From: Eledone cirrhosa
Lineage: Eukaryota
Reading direction: 5' to 3'
Assembly (NCBI GenBank): GCA_964016885.1
Contig: OZ024748.1
Coordinates: 21,576,001-21,640,000, forward strand
Length of the DNA: 64,000 nucleotides
Of this stretch, positions 1,021-51,700 are shown one piece after another. The notes under the pieces were generated by a model. The model ran no database searches, was not told where the DNA came from, and worked only from the letters and a program-made list of their open reading frames with translations. Numbering within the stretch: position 1 is the first letter of the stretch; the number at the start of each line of letters is the position of its first letter. Position numbers and translations under genes: made by a program.

Positions 1021-1268
1021 TCTATATTAAAATTTTTGTACTCCGCTATGTATTGAGTACCTTACTTTCTGTGGTTACCTCCGATTCAACCCGGAATAAC
1101 TTATTATATATATGTATATATATTTGTATGTATATATATATTTGTATATATACATATTTGTGTGTATATATATGTGTGTGTGTATATATGTACATATCTC
1201 AAATGTCCCAAGGCTCTAAAACCATCAACACCAAAAAACACAAAGCTGGCATATCTAAGAACTTACTA

Positions 1269-1324
1269 ACTGCCTGATGAGGTCATAGCCATACAATGGC
1301 TATCATCGAATTATATATAGTAGT
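1269..1324 (+). ncRNA. Degenerate hammerhead, same family as 31055-31113
   Basis: actgc ctgatga ggtcatagcca-tacaa-tggctatcatc gaat tatatata gtagt. Stem II shows compensatory differences from the 31 kb copy; GAAA is changed to GAAU. Confidence 0.6.
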
Positions 1325-1373
1325 AAATAAAAGATTATGAATTCATGCAATTGACTTATGTTTCGTCACTATG

Positions 1374-4881: not shown

Positions 4882-6636
4882 ATAGAAAGAGTTATAGTAT
4901 AAATAATCAGAGATCAAATTGATCTAGATGAAATGCAGTTTGGGTTTGTGTCAGGTAAAAGTACCACAAATGCTCTTTTCCTTGTACGACAACTACAGAA
5001 GTACCTAGCTAAAAGTAAACCCGTCTACTTAGCTTTTGTTGACTTGAAGAAAGCCTTTGACAGAGTCCCCTACTCCATTATCTGGTGGGCCTTTAGAAAA
5101 CTAGGTGTATATGAATGGCTTGTGAGAGCTATACAAGCCATGTATAAAGAAACAGTCAGCAAGGTTAGAATTAACAATGAATATAATGAAGAATTTAGCG
5201 TAAAAGTTGGTGTTCATCAAGGCTTTGTCCTTAGCCCCCTACTATTTATTATTGCCCTTCAGGCTATAACAGAGGAGTTTAAGACCGGCTGCCCATGGGA
5301 ACTTCTATATGCAGATTACCTAACTCTCATAGCTGAATCTATGGCTGAACTAGAGAAGAAATTCCAAACATGGAAGCATGGCCTAGAATCAAAAGGCCTT
5401 AAAGTTAACATGTCTAAGAGTAAAGTCTTAGGAAAATAGGGCACAGGTGCCCTCTAGGAAATGCCCATGCTCAGTGTGTAGGAAAGGAGTAAGTAGAAAT
5501 TCCATTTTATGTCCCAAATGCAAACTATGGGTACATAAAGATGTAGTGGGATCACAGGCAAGCTATCTAAGAACATAGATTTTATATGTGGCCGATGCTC
5601 AGGTGCGATAAGTAGCAAGTGCCCACAGGATACTAGCTCCTTCTACTGCCAAGATGGTTCTATAGAAATAGTGGACACTTTCCGTTACCTGGGTGACAAA
5701 ATCAGTAGTGGTGGAGGGTGCTGTGAAAGTACAGTAGCCAGAGTTAGAACGGGATGGGAAAAGTTCAGAGAGCTTATACTGCTGTTGGTCACAAAAGGTT
5801 TCTCTCTAAAAATGAAAGGCAGATTATATGATGCTTGTATACGAACAGCAATGTTACATGGCAGTGAGACATGGGTATTGTGTGCAGAGGACCTGCGCAG
5901 ACTGGAAAGGGACAAAGCATGCATGCTCCATTGGATGTGTAATAGTAATATACATGAGCGGCAAAACATAAATGAACTAAGTGAGAAATTAGGAATAAGA
6001 GGGATCAGATGCTGTTTACTTGAGAGAAGACTACTTTGGTATGGTCACGTGATGCGCATGAAAAACGACTGCTGTATAAAAAAGTGCAGGGCAATCAAAA
6101 TTGATGGAAGTTGCGGAGTAGGTAGAATCAGAAAAACCTGGGATGATTTGATAAATTCCGACCTCACACACTTACACCTCTCCAAGACAATGTCACTGGA
6201 CCGAGAGCTTTGGCGCTACACGGTAATAATGAAGACCCGCCTTACCTAAGTACAAAGTGAAACCTACTACAGTTAGTAGGCACCTCTAACAAAATACACC
6301 CCGTCCCACTACCCCCACCCCATCCACACCACCCCTTCAATGTAAAGTTATGTTGGTGTCACAACATCCAGCTCGAAACAAATGAGGTCGTGTAGGTGTC
6401 ACAACAAAAAAAAACACACAGTCCACGCTGTAATGTGGTCGTGTAGGCAACACGGTAAAAACCTCCCAGTTCCACACTGTAAATGTGGTTGGTGTTAGGA
6501 AGGGCATCCAGCTGTAGAAAACCCGCCAGACAGTCCTATGCGAGCAAGACAACCATTCTTGCCTCAAGTGGGGAAAACCGCCGTCCAAACCCATGCAAGC
6601 ATGGAATATGGACGTTAAACGATGATGATGATGATG

Positions 6637-9116: not shown

Positions 9117-9238
9117 TATATTAATAAGAGGAATTCCAACTTTGTCTGATTTACTCGTTTTATTTACAATCCTTTAAAATATATATAATGGTATTATAAT
9201 GAAATAGTATGATAGAATATTAAATTCTAAGTGTTAAT

Positions 9239-9277
9239 TGAACAAGTACTTTCATGCTTTCGCAATCTTCAGGTTCA
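9239..9277 (-). ncRNA. Minimal type I hammerhead ribozyme, inverted copy
   Basis: Exact reverse complement of 9383-9421, in the left arm of the 9117-9543 palindrome. Confidence 0.8.
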
Positions 9278-9382
9278 TGATATGTGGTGACAGTCGAGTT
9301 TGCAATTTTCAACTGTCGAAATTTTCAACTGTCGAAATTTTCAACAGTTGAAAATTGCAAACTCGACTGTCACCACATATCA

Positions 9383-9421
9383 TGAACCTGAAGATTGCGA
9401 AAGCATGAAAGTACTTGTTCA
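9383..9421 (+). ncRNA. Minimal type I hammerhead ribozyme (palindromic stem III)
   Basis: UGAAC CUGAAGA U-UGC-GAAA-GCA-U GAAA GUAC UU GUUCA. Stem I is UGAAC/GUUCA, the core is intact, stem II has a GNRA loop, stem III AGUACU is self-complementary, and the predicted cleavage triplet is CUU. Confidence 0.8.
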
Positions 9422-9589
9422 ATTAACACTTAGAATTTAATATTCTATCATACTATTTCATTATAATACCATTATATATATTTTAAAGGATTGTAAATAA
9501 AACGAGTAAATCAGACAAAGTTGGAATTCCTCTTATTAATATAATCTTCTATACACAATCATACACACCCGTGTATATTTACCTATCTA

Positions 9590-30000: not shown

Positions 30001-30953
30001 GATTCATTGCTACCGTATGTGTATTCTGCTTTTTATCTGTTTGTTCATGTTTTTAGGTTTCCAGTATGCTGGAGTACAGTACACAAAAGAATGTTGGTGT
30101 GGTGATGAGTATGGCAAATATGGTCTGTTACCAGACGTCCATTGCTCTAACCATTGTCCACAGAACAGTACAGAGACTTGTGGTGGTTTCCTGGCTATGA
30201 GGGTGTTTAGCACTGGACTTGGAGGTAAGCTCACTCTAATATATTTATTATATTCCTTTATAAGGGCGGTGGATTGGCAGTGTCGGTAGAGGGCCGGACA
30301 CCATACTTTGCAGCATAGAGTTACGGTCCTTTATGATCTGAGTTCAAATCCCGCCGAGGTTAACTTTGCCTTTCATCCTTACGGGGTCGATAAAATAAAG
30401 TACCAGTCACGCACTGGGGTCGATTTAATCGACTTTCCCTTCCGCCAAAATTGCTGGCCTTGTGCCTATATAAGAAACAATTATATTCCTTTATAGGCTC
30501 TTCTCCTTCTCTCTCATTCTTTTTTTCTTTTTCTTCTTCTTCTCTCTCTCTCTCTCTCTCTGCTTCTTCTTTTCCTTTTTCTTATTTTCCTTTTTCTTGT
30601 TTTCCTTCTTCTTCTTCTAGTAATTGTATTATTATTACTAGTGGTGGTGGTGGTGGTGGTGGTAGTGGTGTTAGCAGATGTTGGTGATGGTTGCTAATGC
30701 TGCTGATTGTGGTGGTGGTGGTGGTAGTGATATAACAACACCTCAGTAAACTTCACATCTATAAACAAACCTCTGTTTCTTTCTGTAACATCTCTGACAA
30801 CAGATCTAGTTTTTCAAGAGCACCTTAACTGATATATCACCACCACTACCAGCACCACTGTGTTGTTGATGGTGGCACTGGGGATGGGGTGGGTTGTTTT
30901 AACAAATGACAGAAATTGCATCTATACAAGTGTGTGTGTATATTTCTATATCT

Positions 30954-31005
<52 letters not shown>

Positions 31006-32461
31006 CAAGAAGTGTAAGTCAACAGGTTAAAATTAACTTTGTTTATTCATATTCGCTGCAATATATATTTCGGTGATAACCATAATTCAACAGTTATGAC
31101 CTCATCAGGCAGCTAGAACTTTCAGCATATACCGACAGGTCTTTGGATTAACAACACCACTTTCCGGATCCTGGCATATCACCGAATTAACAAGGTAAAC
31201 TCTATTCCACCATTACGTTTCCCTGTTTTTTCTGTTCAAGTTCTAGCTGCCTGATGAGGTCATAACTGTTGAATTATGCTTATCACCAAAATATATATTG
31301 CAGTGAATATGAATAAACAAAATTAATTTTAATCTGTTGACTTACACTTTTTGTTTTAAATTACTCCAAAGGAAACAGACTCACCTGCACACTTCCTTGA
31401 GGCTCTAACCTTCATACTGGAGTGCTGGGAAGCAATCAACACAAACAAAATTTATATTTACTCTTTTACTTTTTTACTATTTTTCCTGTTTCAGCCATCC
31501 GGCTGAGGCCATGCTGGTGCACTGCATATATATATATATTTATTCGTAAAATTAGAGTATTCTCAACACGAAAGGTAGCCGTGAACAGCTGGATACCATT
31601 TGCATGCATAGCAAAAGAAAGGCTGTTTGCTGTTTGAAAGGGAACAGCTACAACAGTAGGTGGAAATAACAGCAGCAGCAGTGGTAAAACCTGAGCCAGG
31701 TCAGGCTTTCTACACCGAATGGATGGAGTGCAAGAGACAGATAACTCTTTATATATTTATCTAGCTACCCCCTTTTTTTTTTTTTTTTGTCTCTCCCGTT
31801 TTCGCCTCCCTTTGTTTTTCTATTTACCACTGTTACTTCCGCTTACTGCTGCTGATGTTCCCATTGGAATAGCAAACAGACTCTATATTGGTATCTCCTG
31901 CCATTGGCTCCCTTCATTTTTGCCACTGCTGCTACTGTTACTTCCGCCTGCTGCTCCCTTTCGACCAGCAAAAATCCTTTCATTTGCCAATCTCGGTTTC
32001 AGGCTGATGCCCCCCCCCCCCCCCCATTGCTCTTTCATTCATCTTTTCTAGCATTTGAACAACAGAGATTTGATTCCTGCTGTGTAGACAATACTTCTAG
32101 ACATAGTCCTTCCCTTGGGTAGTTCAGGATTGGTGGGGTACCTGAGTCACCCCTGGATGGTTCAGCCCCCTATTAGGGAATTTAGTTTGTTATTTTTATA
32201 CATAGTTTATTTTATTTTATTTTTTCATTGTTAAATTGGTTTTGTTATTGTGCATTTTTACTCAATCTTATTTTGTAAACCCCACCCACCCACCCACTGT
32301 CCCTGTCTTTGTACTGTCCCCTACATGTCGGTCCTTGTGGCCAATAAATGAAATTATTATTATTAACATTAGTAGTAGTAGTAGTAGTAAGTAGCATGTC
32401 TCTCTCTCCCTCACTCTATCCCCCCTCTCTCTCTCTATCCCCCTTTCTGCCTCCCTCTCTC

Positions 32462-41500: not shown

Positions 41501-44500
41501 TCCTCTCATCTCTTCCCTCCTCTCATCTCTTCCCTCCTCTCATCTCTTCCCTCCTCTCATCTCTTCCCTCCTCTCATCTCTTCCCTCCTCTCATCTCTTC
41601 CCTCCTCTCATCTCTTCCCTCCTCTCATCTCTTCCCTCCTCTCATCTCCTCTCATCTCCTCACATCTCTCTTCTCCTCTCATCTCTTCCCTTCTCTCATC
41701 TCCTCCAATTTCTTCCTTCTTCTCATCTCCTCACATCTCTTCCTTCAACTCCTCCCATCTCCTCATCTCTTCCCTCCTCTAATCTCAAATCACTTCCCTC
41801 CTCTCATTTCTCTCACATCTCACCACTTTTTCTTCTTCCTACATCTCAAATCTCTCCTCTCACATCTCACCTCCTCTCCTTTTATCACATCGCACTTGTT
41901 CTTTTCTTCTACATCTCACACCCTTTTAAGCTCACATCTCTTTTCCTCTCACACCTCACTCTTTCTATTCTTCCTACATCTCACCTTCTCTCACATTTAA
42001 CCCATTCTCCCCTCTCCCTTTTCTTTCCTTTCTCCCTCACATTTCACCATTTTTCTTCCCACATTGCAGTCACCATTTCTCATCTCCCCGCATCTCTCTT
42101 ACCCCTTCTCTCTCTTCTTGTTACTCTCATTCTTTCTTTGTTGTTTGCCTCTCTCTCACAAACACACACATAGACACAAATGTGTGTGTGCATATATATT
42201 TATATATACATATATGTTTATATATATGGAGGCACATGGCTTAGTGGTTAGAACATTGGCCTTGCAATTGAAAGGTTGGAAGTTCAATTCTCAGACCGGG
42301 TGATGTGTTGTTTCCTTGAGCAAGACACTTTATTTCACATTCCTCCAGTTTACTCAGCTGTAGAAATGAGATGATAGGGACTGGGGTCCCTATCATTCCA
42401 CTGCAAAGTGGACGTGTAGGTGCCACTGCAAAAACCACCCAGCACTCACTGTAAATGAGGTTGGTGTTAGGAAGGGCATCCAGCTGTAGAAATCAAACCA
42501 GAATCAGTTCCCGTCCCACCCTTGCAAGCAGGGAAAAGTGGACGTAAAATGATGATGATATATTATACTTTGGGAGGGTCATAATGCCAATAAAAACACA
42601 CACGCACCTGTTGGTTTTCACTTCAGTTTATTATAAATTTACCGTTGGTTGGTTGGATAACTGGATGGTTTATATAGTGTCTAAGCTCTTTCGTCACCCA
42701 TTCTGTGACCTCCTCAGTGACTGGGTTTTTATTTTGTGTTCCTCCTTTGTTCTATCCTACAACACAATAACAAGATGATGTAGGATAGAACAAAGGAACT
42801 TTCAGTGAATAATGTTCCAATTTCCTCTCTTTGGGATTAAATTTTGATCTAAATTTTTCTAAGTCTTTTTAAAGTGTTTTTTTTTTAAATGGTTATTTTG
42901 CTATTAACGAGAATGACATCAATTGCCAATACATATATATATATATATATGTTCTTGTATATGGTAGATATACCATCCCAGATATGTACTCAGTCTTCTA
43001 GTGTTGTATCATCTGCTCTAAACTCTAATCTGTTCTTTTTTCTACCATTTTCCTCCTCTTTAGAGAAAAAGAAGATCCAAGCAACTTTAGTGAAAGCCAA
43101 TGAAATTTTGTCTGAGGAGCGTGTCAGAATTGCCTTTGTGTTTACATTGAATGGACGTGCTGTCCGCCAAGTCTTCCGTCTACTTAAGACCCTCTACCAC
43201 ACCAACCACTACTACTTCTTCCATGTGGACGCTGTGAGTACTTACCTAAACACACATCACACACAAACACATGTGTGTGTGTCAGTATGTCAGCCATGGA
43301 TTGGCAGTATCGGTAGAGGGTCGGATGCCATGCTTTCCAGCATAGTTACGTCCCTTAACGATCTGAGTTCAAATCCCGCTAAGGTTAACTTTGCCTTTCA
43401 TCCTTACGGAGGTCGATAAAATAAAGTACCAGTAATGCACTGGGTAATTGCTGACCTTGTGCCAAAAAGTAGAAACAAGTATGTCAACCAATCTAGAAAC
43501 ACCCTACTGTCTATCTGTCTCTGTCAGTCAATCTGTCTATATACCTCTATTAGTCTGTCTGTGTGTCTATCTGTCAGTCTATACATGTCTGTCTATCTGT
43601 CAGTTTGTCAGTCTGTCTAATGTTGTCACCTTCTCTCTCTCTCTCTCTGTCAGTCTGTCTATTTGTCTCTCTATCTGTCTAATATCACCTCTCTGTCAGT
43701 CAGTCTGTCTGTCTGTCTGCCTGTCTATATATCTCTATTAGTCTGTCTGTCTAATATCACCTCTCTCTCTCTGTCAGTCTGTCTATCTCGCTGTCTGTCA
43801 GTCTGTCTATCTGTCAGTCTGTCTCTCTGTCTCTCTGTCAGTTTGTCAGTCTGTCTAATATCACCATCTCTCTGTCTGTCAGTCTGTCTACCTATCTCTC
43901 TGACTGCCAGTCTGTCAGTCTGTCTACCCGTCTCTCTGTCTGTCAGTGTGTTTACCCGTCTCTCTGTCAGTCAGTCTGTCTACCCGTCTCTCTGACTGCC
44001 AGTCTGTCTACCCGTCTCTCTGACTGCCAGTCTGTCTACCCGTCTCTCTGTCTGTCAGTCTGTCTAATATCACCATCTCTCTGTCTGCCAGTCTGTCTAA
44101 TATCACCATCTCTCTGTCTGCCAGTCTGTCTAATATCACCATCTCTCTGTCAGTCAGTCTGTCTAATATCACCATCTCTCTGTCTGTCAGTCTGTCTAAT
44201 ATCACCATCTCTCTGTCTGTCAGTCTGTCTAATATCACCATCTCTCTGTCAGTCAGTCTGTCTAATATCACCATCTCTCTGTCTGTCAGTCTGTCTAATA
44301 TCACCATCTCTCTGTCAGTCAGTCTGTCTAATATCACCATCTCTCTGTCAGTCAGTCTGTCTAATATCACCATCTCTCTGTCAGTCAGTCTGTCTAATAT
44401 CACCATCTCTCTGTCTGTCAGTCTGTCTAATATCACCATCTCTCTGTCTGTCAGTCTGTCTAATATCACCATCTCTCTGTCAGTCAGTCTGTCTAATATC

Positions 44501-45213
44501 ACCATCTCTCTGTCTATCAGTCTGTCTAATATCACCATCTCTCTGTCAGTCAGTCTGTCTAATATCACCATCTCTCTGTCAGTCAGTCTGTCTAATATCA
44601 CCATCTCTCTGTCAGTCAGTCTGTCTAATATCACCATCTCTCTGTCAGTCAGTCTGTCTAATATCACCATCTCTCTGTCAGTCAGTCTGTCTAATATCAC
44701 CATCTCTCTGTCTGTCTGTCTGTCAGTCTGTCTAATATCACCATCTCTCTGTCTGTCAGTCTGTCTAATATCACCATCTCTCTGTCTGTCAGTCTGTCTA
44801 CCTGTCTCTCTGTCTGCCAGTCTGTCTAACATTGTCACTTTCAAGAAATATCCCACTATATCCTCTTACTTTTGTTTTGTTCCATTTCCACAGCGTCAAG
44901 AATTTCTGCAGAGGGAGATGCTGGAACTGGCCAAAAGGTTCCCCAATATGTATGTTACCCACAAGAGATTACCCACAATCTGGGGTGGGGCCAGTTTATT
45001 ACAGGCTCACCTAAATATAATGACCGAGCTGATAGCAAAGTCAAATTGGAAATGGGACTACTATGTAAATCTCAGTGAATCGGATTACCCTATCAAGTTA
45101 GTCTTTTGTCTCATTTATTTTATTTTATCTGTCTTCGGTGGAGTAGGAGTGACAAAGCTTAACTCTTAAACACCTGCAATACTTTAGAAAAAAAACCCAT
45201 CTAAATATGGGTT

Positions 45214-48700: not shown

Positions 48701-51700
48701 ATAGTGTGTATCACAGAATCAGGGGGCAGTTTTGTATCACAAAATCAGAGATAGCTTTGTATTACAGAATTAAGAAATATGTCTGGCAGTTTGATATAAA
48801 ATGTCTGTTGTTATTTCAGTCATTCTTCCATACGGTATTACAGAACAGTAAGTTCTGTGGAATGTTTGTTGACAACAACCTGAGAATTACCAACTGGCGT
48901 CGGAAGCTTGGCTGTAAATGTCAGTATAAACATATCGTTGACTGGTGTGGCTGTTCACCAAATGTCTTTAAATCTTCTGATCTACACCGACTGATGGTAA
49001 GTGAAACAACTGTGTGTGTGGTGTGTGTTTATAGATATATATGTAAGTACATATTTGTATGTGTATATATATATATATAAATACATATATATATATATAT
49101 ATATATAAATACATATATATATATATATATATATAAATACATATACATATATATATATATATATATATAAATACATATACATATATATATATACAAACAT
49201 GTAGAAAGACATATATATATAATTGTTTCTACTTTAGGCACAAGGCCAGCAATTACCCAGTGCATTACTGGTACTTTATTTTATCGACCCTGTATATATA
49301 TATATAATGTCTTTCTATATGTGTGTATGTGTGTATATATATATATAGAGAGAGAGAGAGATGTAAGTACATATATGTGTATATATATATATAGGCAACA
49401 CCTCCCCCTACCATCTCTCCTCCCATACACCACCCTTTGCTGTAACCATCCCTTCCCTATTACCTATGTCCTAAATTTCTTCAAGCTTCTTTCCCCATCC
49501 CACACCTGAAGCGGTTCCCCCAAGAGCTACGACAAAAGTGCCCAGCCCACACTGTATAGTGGTCATGTATGTGTCAAGACAAAAGTGCTCAGTCCTCACT
49601 GTAATGTGGTGGTGTAGGAGTCACAACAAAAAGTGCTCAGTCCAGACTATAATGTGGTCGTGTAGGAGTCACAAGAAAAAGTGCTCAGTCCACACTGTAA
49701 TGTGGTCATGTAGGAGTCACAAGAAAAAGTGCTCAGTCCACACTGTAATGTGGTCATGTAGGAGTCACAAGAAAAAGTGCTCAGTCCACACTGTAATGTG
49801 GTCATGTAGGAGTCACAACAAAAAGTGCACAGTCCAGACTGTAATTTGGTCATGTAGGAGTCACAAGAAAAAGTGCTCAGTCCACACTGTAATGTGGTCA
49901 TGTAGGAGTCACAACAAAAAGTGCACAGTCCAGACTGTAATGTGGTCATGTAAGAGTCACAAGAAAAAGTGCCCAGTCCTCACTGAAATGTGGTCATGTA
50001 GGAGTCACAAGAAAAAGTGCACAGTCCAGACTATAATGTGGTCGTGTAGGAGTCACAAGAAAAAGTGCTCAGTCCACACTGTAATGTGGTCATGTAGGAG
50101 TCACAAGAAAAAGTGCTCAGTCCACACTGTAATGTGGTCATGTAGGAGTCACAACAAAAAGTGCTCAGTCCTCACTGTAATGTGGTCATGTAGGAGTCAC
50201 AACAAAAAGTGCACAGTCCACACTGTAATGTGGTCATGTAGGAGTCACAACAAAAAGTGCTCAGTCCACACTGTAATATGGTCGTGTAGGAGTCACAAGA
50301 AAAAGTGCTCAGTCCACACTAATGTGGTGGTGTAGGAGTCACAAGAAAAAGTGCTCAGTCCACACTGTAATGTGGTGGTGTAGGAGTCACAAGAAAAAGT
50401 GCTCAGTCCACACTGTAATGTGGTCGTGTAGGAGTCACAAGAAAAAGTGCTCAGTCCACACTGTAATGTGGTCATGTAGGAGTCACAAGAAAAAGTGCCC
50501 AGTCCACACTGTAATGTGGTCATGTAGGAGTCACAACAAAAAGTGCTCAGTCCACACTGTAATGTGGTCATGTAAGAGTCACAAGAAAAAGTGCACAGTC
50601 CAGACTGTAATGTGGTCATGTAGGAGTCACAAGAAAAAGTGCTCAGTCCACACTGTAATATGGTCGTGTAGGAGTCACAAGAAAAAGTGCCCAGTCCACA
50701 CTGTAATATGGTCGTGTAGGAGTCACAAGAAAAAGTGCTCAGTCCACACTGTAATATGGTCGTGTAGGAGTCACAACAAAAAGTGCTCAGTCCTCACTGT
50801 AATGTGGTCATGTAGGAGTTACAACAAAAAGTGCACAGTCCAGACTGTAATGTGGTCATGTAGGAGTCACAAGAAAAAGTGCTCAGTCCACACTGTAATG
50901 TGGTCGTGTAGGAGTCACAACAAAAAGTGCTCAGTCCACACTGTAATGTGGTCGTGTAGGAGTCACAACAAAAAGTGCACAGTCCAGACTGTAATGTGGT
51001 CATGCAGGAGTCACAAGAAAAAGTGCTCAGTCCACACTGTAATGTGGTGGTGCAGGAGTCATGACAAAAAGTGCTCAGTCCACACTGTAATCTGGTCGTG
51101 TAGGAGTCACAACAAAAAGTGCTCAGTCCACACTGTAATGTGGTCGTGTAGGAGTCACAACAAAAAGTGCTCAGTCCACACTGTAATGTGGTCGTGTAGG
51201 AGTCATGACAAAAAGTGCTCAGTCCACATTGTAATGTGGTCATGTAGGCATCATGACAAAAAGTGCTCAGTCCACACTGTAATGTGGTCGTGTAGGGGTC
51301 ACAACAAAAAGTGCACAGTCCACACTGTAATGTGGTCGTGTAGGAGTCATGACAAAAAGTGCTCAGTCCACACTGTAATGTGGTCATGTAGGCATCATGA
51401 CAAAAAGTGCTCAGTCCACACTGTAATGTGGTCGTGTAGGAGTCACAAGAAAAAGTGCTCAGTCCACACTGTAATGTGGTCATGTAGGAGTCACAACAAA
51501 AAATGCTCAGTCCACACTGTAATGTGGTCGTGTAGGAGTCACAACAAAAAGTGCTCAGTCCACACTGTAATGTGGTGGTGTAGGAGTCACAACAAAAAGT
51601 GCTCAGTCCAAACTGTAATGTGGTCATGTAGGAGTCACAACAAAAAATGCTCAGTCCACACTGTAATGTGGTTGTGTAGGAGTCACAACAAAAAGTGCTC

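Follow-up and report, generated by a model that had tools for sequence, protein, structure and literature searches.

Does a pair of opposed hammerhead motifs in an intron of Eledone cirrhosa represent an element built of two inverted arms around a spacer, as the original prediction had it, or a fragment of something else? The question was addressed in a window of 64,000 nucleotides (GCA_964016885.1, contig OZ024748.1, positions 21,576,001 to 21,640,000), to which all coordinates below refer.

The arm-spacer-arm picture was not borne out. The locus holds an insertion of a Penelope-like element (PLE), composed of a 5'-truncated inverted pseudo-LTR (pLTR) and, adjoining it, a longer pLTR that bears a tail. 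It does not constitute an RNA element in its own right, and as a single locus it is ordinary. In all likelihood, a single insertion of the pLTR end of an abundant PLE, likely of the Hydra clade, left two head-to-head copies here, reverse transcription having likely started at each of the two cut ends of a (TA)n run. The insertion is likely inert today.

Publications already describe hammerheads in pLTRs and their opposite-strand pairs, copies that are truncated and inverted, tails on one side, and the targeting of TA (PMC4209133 and the accessible text of PMC8557442 and PMC3846280). What the present data suggest as new are a rule of one tail per pair, a pile-up of 5' ends past a CCAAT box and the position of the ends at the predicted cut site in five of seven short double-ended insertions. 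The formation of inverted repeats and tails in PLEs and the role of the hammerhead stand as open questions in the accessible parts of PMC8557442 and PMC11167929, and these three observations yield predictions that can be counted. The family is present in very many copies, some of them young and with the ORF intact, and it is missed by Rfam; an intact sister element is a possible substrate for an in vitro assay.

Anatomy of the insertion

The features of the locus and of its relatives in the window are compiled in Table 1. The inverted arms, 31002-31121 (as reverse complement) and 31238-31357, are 120 bp long, as had been claimed, and identical at 113 of 120 positions, with 7 differences. The predicted spacer of about 115 bp is right in length (116 bp separate the arms), but its sequence belongs to the element, being the 5' part of the pLTR. 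Likewise, the proposed extent of 31002 to 31357 holds for the arms and not for the end of the element, which lies at about 31453, the right unit running past 31357 into a 96-nt tail common to many copies. In the genome search, the repeating unit was "spacer plus right arm", and the left arm was a truncated inverted copy of it.

Table 1. Features of the inverted insertion, its relative and the host gene in the window.
Feature	Position	Strand	Remarks
Stub of sister subfamily B: solo pLTR reaching from the hot spot as far as end 1, with TA-rich repeats on either side	1198..1371	+	
Hammerhead of the subfamily-B stub	1269-1324	+	A15.1 changed to U at 1311
Host exon, WSC domain, xylosyltransferase-like gene	30057..30225	+	
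(TA)n run flanking the left end	30963..31001	.	Likely insertion target; most outer ends in the family adjoin TA-type sequence
Left arm: inverted, 5'-truncated pLTR 3' end, stops at end 1, tail absent	31002..31121	-	
Type I hammerhead motif, core intact	31055..31113	-	C3=31108, G12=31071, U17=31060
Junction filler, 4 nt, joining the two arms	31122..31125	.	
"Spacer": 5' part of the pLTR	31126..31237	+	Starts exactly on the 5'-end hot spot shared by the family (CATAT; inferred 5' end of the RNA)
Right arm: 3' part of the pLTR with hammerhead, AATAAA and end 1	31238..31357	+	
Damaged hammerhead, host-gene sense	31246..31304	+	G12 to A at 31288; stem II G to C at 31279
Tail, ~96 nt	31358..31453	+	In full-length relatives, the stretch separating the 5' pLTR from the ORF
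Further xylosyltransferase-like exons (WSC and Branch domains)	~43100-43230, ~44900-45110, ~48820-49000	+	

No ORF sequence was detected inside the window by tblastn, and no target-site duplication could be read within the TA runs; the output of a repeat search across the whole window was dominated by TA repeats. The insertion sits about 780 bp past the WSC-domain exon, in the following intron, the next exon being found at about 43.1 kb. The host gene is one that we take to be xylosyltransferase-like from its order of WSC and Branch domains.

Hammerhead copies in the window

The left hammerhead, read on the minus strand, has stem I GCUGC/GCAGC, the core CUGAUGA, a stem II (GGUCAUAAC/GUUAUCACC) with one C.C mismatch, GAA, the sequence AUAUAUAU and U17. 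Its cut is predicted at the 31060/31059 bond. Stems I and II formed on folding; the z, at -1.7, was modest. Against a model built from the family, it scored 97.9 bits (the left copy being itself part of the model), and exactly three strong matches were found in the window, namely the left, the right and the 1.2-kb copy, all three included in the model. Of the three, the left copy alone is intact in its core; the right one carries G12A and the 1.2-kb one A15.1U. Rfam detected no hammerhead in 31002-31360 at E<=10, and none stood among the 150 of 222 matches listed for the whole window.

The relative said to lie some 30 kb away is real (1269-1324, blastn E 7e-8 in a search within the window), the counterpart of stem II was located at 1281-1307 just as predicted, and the A-U to G-C double change in this stem proved to be a fixed difference between subfamilies. 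The comparison of stem I (GCUGC/GCAGC against ACUGC/GUAGU) survives in part: the G-C/A-U double change is likewise a fixed subfamily difference, whereas the G.U in "GUAGU" is decay of this copy, as 26 of 32 subfamily-B copies have G-C at that site. Stem III, described as a TA run, is indeed TA-like, but it is a palindrome conserved throughout the family, of the type published for PLE hammerheads. Leakage of stem III from the flanking microsatellite was considered and rejected in view of this conservation. Selection against a host-sense ribozyme was rejected as well, G12A being a CpG-type change present in 7 of 113 copies.

Structure and covariation across the family

The structure was assessed in an alignment of 113 copies, from which 6 of 119, truncated or rearranged, had been removed beforehand. 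Paired cells amounted to 94.2% in the hammerhead structure against 16-56% in controls with slid partners, and 72 cells showed double changes, a number reached in 0 of 500 shuffles. The number of pairs with a double change was 6, which is not beyond the shuffles (53 of 500). Double changes at the level of subfamilies and in many copies were seen at four pairs (columns 5-65, 9-61, 22-41 and 24-39), that at 24-39 in one subfamily with a G.U intermediate; subfamily group A3 is defined by the 9-61 change itself. Since the copies are related and the pair count lies within the shuffles, about four independent compensatory events are a fair count. The covariation, which the original prediction staked on a larger alignment, thus holds in these copies; the two window copies offer a single comparison, between two subfamilies.

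With the core defined as C3 U4 G5 A6 N7 G8 A9 / G12 A13 A14 A15.1 / U16.1 H17, it was intact in 85 of 113 copies, and the majority letters of seven subfamily groups differed only at N7 and H17. These are the positions at which the hammerhead tolerates change, the latter under the NUH rule (accessible text of PMC8495972). RNAalifold recovered stem II alone from the family alignment. The AUAUAUAU palindrome of helix III is conserved at no less than 90% across the 113 copies; its formation costs 3.2 kcal/mol in the monomer, and the intermolecular duplex is at -3.2 kcal/mol. PLE hammerheads with such a palindromic helix III work poorly alone (PMC4209133). Conservation of the hammerhead and covariation across subfamilies argue that selection acted on master elements and not on the window copy; the motif would thus be kept under selection in active masters, where helix III would likely fold only as a dimer or with the help of protein.

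The general design follows that of published PLE hammerheads: a type I motif in the pLTR with a long helix II and a 5-bp helix I, a helix III that is palindromic and by prediction requires dimerization, pairs on opposite strands at distances of 100-700 bp, and covarying consensus families within one genome. It departs from them in that no extra base stands between positions 9 and 10.1 (G10.1 directly follows A9), in the conserved 1x1 C.C mismatch of helix II and in the length of its palindrome, 8 nt. The C.C mismatch (columns 20 and 43) persists in 7 of 7 subfamily groups next to pairs that covary, and may thus serve as a contact for protein or within the tertiary structure.

Penelope-like identity of the family

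The genome search with the window unit returned 2,488 first-look candidates, and an 18-mer of the ribozyme had 12,405 exact matches in the genome against 0 for the control. Three sequencing runs (one sample, contigs) also contained many variants of the family. When window-like copies were extended stepwise in the upstream direction, degraded RT and GIY-YIG frames were reached, 71% and 50% identical, respectively, to the intact 892-aa ORF of a young sister subfamily. Full-length relatives are arranged in the order pLTR, tail, ORF, long 3' UTR and pLTR, in a unit of about 4.1 kb, and have the make-up of endonuclease-positive PLEs. Partial tandems of pLTRs with an inverted 5'-truncated copy and an optional tail were found at L070, L072, L077, L078 and L081. 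No intact ORF was found in the window's own subfamily, and the link to RT and GIY-YIG rests there on decayed copies. A DNA search with the subfamily-C pLTR gave no matches, its words probably being too common.

Neither Pfam nor PDB returned anything informative for the complete 892-aa ORF. Pfam support for its GIY-YIG is weak, below the cut-off, and the RT fragment had no relevant match in Pfam; the Atlas clusters nearest to the ORF carry HTH_animal, GIY-YIG or RVT_1. In the ORF of L070, the motifs RWK, DKT, CxCX5C, CxxC and CxH were located at positions 37, 120, 752, 850 and 878; inspection of its translation revealed an endonuclease lacking the CCHH motif, with one Cys in the GIY-YIG core. 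These five motifs (CxCX5C as a linker), (TA)n targeting and hammerheads mark the Hydra clade in the accessible text of PMC8557442, and the present family resembles the PLEs described there in all of them, in its C-terminal GIY-YIG, in the 3' position of its hammerhead and in its inverted 5'-truncated copies; the (TA)n preference was seen at the outer ends of family copies. On the basis of motifs and by-eye protein comparison rather than a tree, the family is therefore likely a Hydra-clade PLE. Assignment to the Neptune or Nematis clade was rejected against the published motif definitions.

The accessible text of PMC8557442 (Craig et al. 2021) also describes Hydra-1_Obim of Octopus bimaculoides, whose N-terminal 400 aa match L070 motif by motif when compared by eye. 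It has a protein of 709 aa against 892 here and a unit of 2.5 kb against about 4.1 kb, and the hammerhead of the window's family differs from that of Hydra-1_Obim in its long stem II with the C.C mismatch and in its all-AU palindromic helix III. Because of the differing hammerhead and protein length, the two families are likely separate. The same source gives tails of 30-40 bp for the Hydra clade, compared to about 96 nt and more than 12,000 ribozyme copies here, and lengths generally below 3 kb, which is a tendency rather than a strict criterion. As far as its accessible text goes, a repeat annotation of octopus from 2026 counts Penelope-like families without mention of ribozymes (PMC13282606). 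Our literature search, conducted outside Repbase and Dfam and over few subscription papers, retrieved no description of the window's PLE family or of the one-tail-per-pair rule presented below.

It should be added that the young subfamily (L070:2419-5094 (+), L072 and L073) has frames that stay open for about 890 aa and arms with over 99% identity, and is possibly still active; its RT returned 34,170 first-look protein candidates in the genome.

Inverted pairs, tails and 5' ends

Among the first 100 matches of the 18-mer in order of position, neighbours within 5 kb comprised 18 head-to-head and 0 tail-to-tail pairs, and three same-strand pairs (two about 500 bp and one 4.1 kb apart), with no longer arrays. 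After leaving out 2 of the 18 head-to-head pairs as of mixed subfamily, exactly one arm carried the tail in 16 of 16 cases, 8 on the left and 8 on the right. A set picked by similarity had one tail in 22 of 24 pairs, none in two and both in none. The convergent duplication L017 was left out. In a third set, picked by the tail (67 arms, after removal of 3 internal tails from 70), 29 arms had an adjacent inverted partner that stops at end 1; two partners with a tail were internal 5' pLTRs of full-length elements. The untailed arm reached farther 5' in 13 of these 29 pairs, the tailed arm in 4, and both ended at the same point in 12.

The 5' ends of copies pile up at a CATATG point, 51-55 nt past a conserved CCAAT box, with 17 of 67 in subfamily C (p about 2e-14), and with 12 of 27 in B and 7 of 49 in A, where copies had been picked by similarity. 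Both window copies begin there (31126 and 1198), and this point, given the pile-up and these two starts, is likely the 5' end of the RNA. Alternatively, the CATATG palindrome could favour joining to TA at this point; the longer AUAUAUAU palindrome, which has no hot spot, counts against that account. In L007, L009, L015, L016, L017 and L028 (~1345-1385), subfamily-A alignments stop 123-139 nt upstream of the main hot spot, at what is either a second cluster of 5' ends or a subfamily boundary.

Ends at the predicted cut site

The predicted cut site was read through by 61 of the 67 tailed arms, which argues that uncut RNA is the usual template for insertion. Genome-wide, seven pairs had both arms reaching the cut site within 15 nt of each other; in five of them both sides stop no more than 1 nt from the cut, whereas the two control anchors together gave 1 of 20 (p 0.001-0.004). 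One of 11 control matches was dropped as unrelated, and scoring it as contrary evidence yields the p of 0.004. The numbers are small, and one of the five, L174, is the case that prompted the test. Pairs near the cut site were not more numerous than at the controls (7 versus 10 and 10), the positions alone being concentrated. Direct palindromes centred on the cut site numbered 2, one of them already counted above, versus 0 at the control position. These end positions hint at occasional cleavage by the hammerhead without proving it, and the ribozyme would likely cut only rarely.

Origin of the insertion

The preferred account of the window insertion runs as follows. A protein of the element would cut both strands of the TA run, after which one DNA end would prime cDNA at end 1, the end of the pLTR, and the other at end 2, the end of the tail. 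Both cDNAs would proceed toward the 5' end of the RNA, which usually would stay uncut by the hammerhead; here the tailed one would have arrived (31126), and the other would have halted after 120 nt. The ends would then have been joined via the four filler bases. A comparable behaviour is recorded in the accessible text of PMC11167929 for Anolis PAc, which in vitro cuts and extends both strands, starts reverse transcription at two internal sites and uses mostly uncut RNA; one tail per pair and the two types of ends match it.

The main rival keeps the same element and has the inverted arm made either by one cDNA that folds back or primes itself, or on an antisense template, a route proposed for the Penelope elements of Adineta. 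Palindromic junctions are read as self-priming in the accessible text of PMC3846280, and the pairs with both arms ending at the same point, several of them perfect palindromes, would suit this reading. Nevertheless, an untailed cDNA cannot template a tail, and fold-back therefore needs the tailed arm to be the longest, against which stand the 13 pairs with the longer untailed arm; fold-back also leaves the fixed outer end 1 unexplained. We regard it as improbable. The one-tail pairs are better explained by two independent priming events, each at its own fixed site on the RNA, and each insertion was likely primed twice. The window insertion resembles Adineta Pen2a in its head-to-head arms and in a tail on one pLTR that corresponds to the sequence following the 5' pLTR (accessible text of PMC3846280). 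Three points set the present family apart from Pen2a and Anolis PAc as described in the accessible parts of PMC3846280 and PMC11167929: almost all pairs bear the tail on one arm and one arm only, the 5' ends form a sharp, measurable hot spot, and insertion is into (TA)n, where no duplication can be read.

In an extension put forward tentatively, which we would sooner doubt than rely on, all inverted insertions would be twin-primed, one cut end being bound to the start site at the pLTR end and the other to that at the tail end. The thousands of stubs would then be a record of how Penelope integrates, and the small class with both arms at the scissile bond would prove cutting by a PLE hammerhead in vivo.

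Far less credible than fold-back is a host-selected, purpose-built inverted dual-ribozyme RNA (a switch, a retrozyme or a source of circular RNA) in the xylosyltransferase intron. The intact left core, the covarying stems and the intronic position, from which transcription is likely, speak for it. Nonetheless, the host-sense copy is without G12, the general base (accessible text of PMC8495972), the stems covary between subfamilies and not within the locus, the arms have drifted at 7 of 120 sites, and the layout is common genome-wide. Furthermore, folding predicts that in any RNA spanning the insertion the arms pair into one 120-bp duplex, which would hide the ribozyme. With regard to retrozymes, the likeness to the non-LTR type lies in short non-coding type I hammerhead units related to PLE pLTRs (accessible parts of PMC7229834 and bioRxiv 10.64898/2026.07.22.740005). 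According to the accessible text of PMC7229834, retrozymes are head-to-tail tandem repeats that yield circles, whereas the window pair consists of head-to-head, inverted truncated ends of a coding element and lacks the arrangement of head-to-tail 150-450 bp units, each with a hammerhead.

A MITE or fold-back DNA transposon, with TIRs hammerhead-like by chance, would account for inverted arms around a centre, TA flanks and high copy number, but it is refuted by the continuity with the RT ORF and may be set aside almost entirely. Arm length varies between copies, one end differs from the other, and the majority of copies either are monomers truncated on the 5' side or run on into RT/GIY-YIG sequence; across the seven subfamily groups, changes in the core are confined to the two tolerant positions named above.

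Other features of the window and genome

Decayed non-LTR reverse transcriptase frames, presumably RTE-like, lie at 4903-6246 (+), and a very high-copy short repeat, which we assume to resemble an octopus SINE, occupies 31476-31525, immediately to the right of the insertion. A second head-to-head hammerhead pair, of another family, was noticed at 915-1103 (cores at 967 minus and 977 plus), with a 3-bp stem II and an extension on the right arm only; its helix III, ACAG/CUGU, is as in published Hydra-clade motifs. Relatives of this pair occur at several genome loci, with stem I GAUUC/GAAUC versus GCUUC/GAAGC. A third head-to-head pair, at about 9170-9490 (cores at 9272 minus and 9388 plus), forms a near-perfect palindrome with an internally duplicated centre and has CUGAAGA, stem II UGC/GCA with a GAAA loop and a palindromic AGUACU helix III. 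Yet another family of hammerheads, whose stem II reads AGCU/AGCU and whose helix III is the palindrome ACUAGU, was met in six places among the retrieved genome loci.
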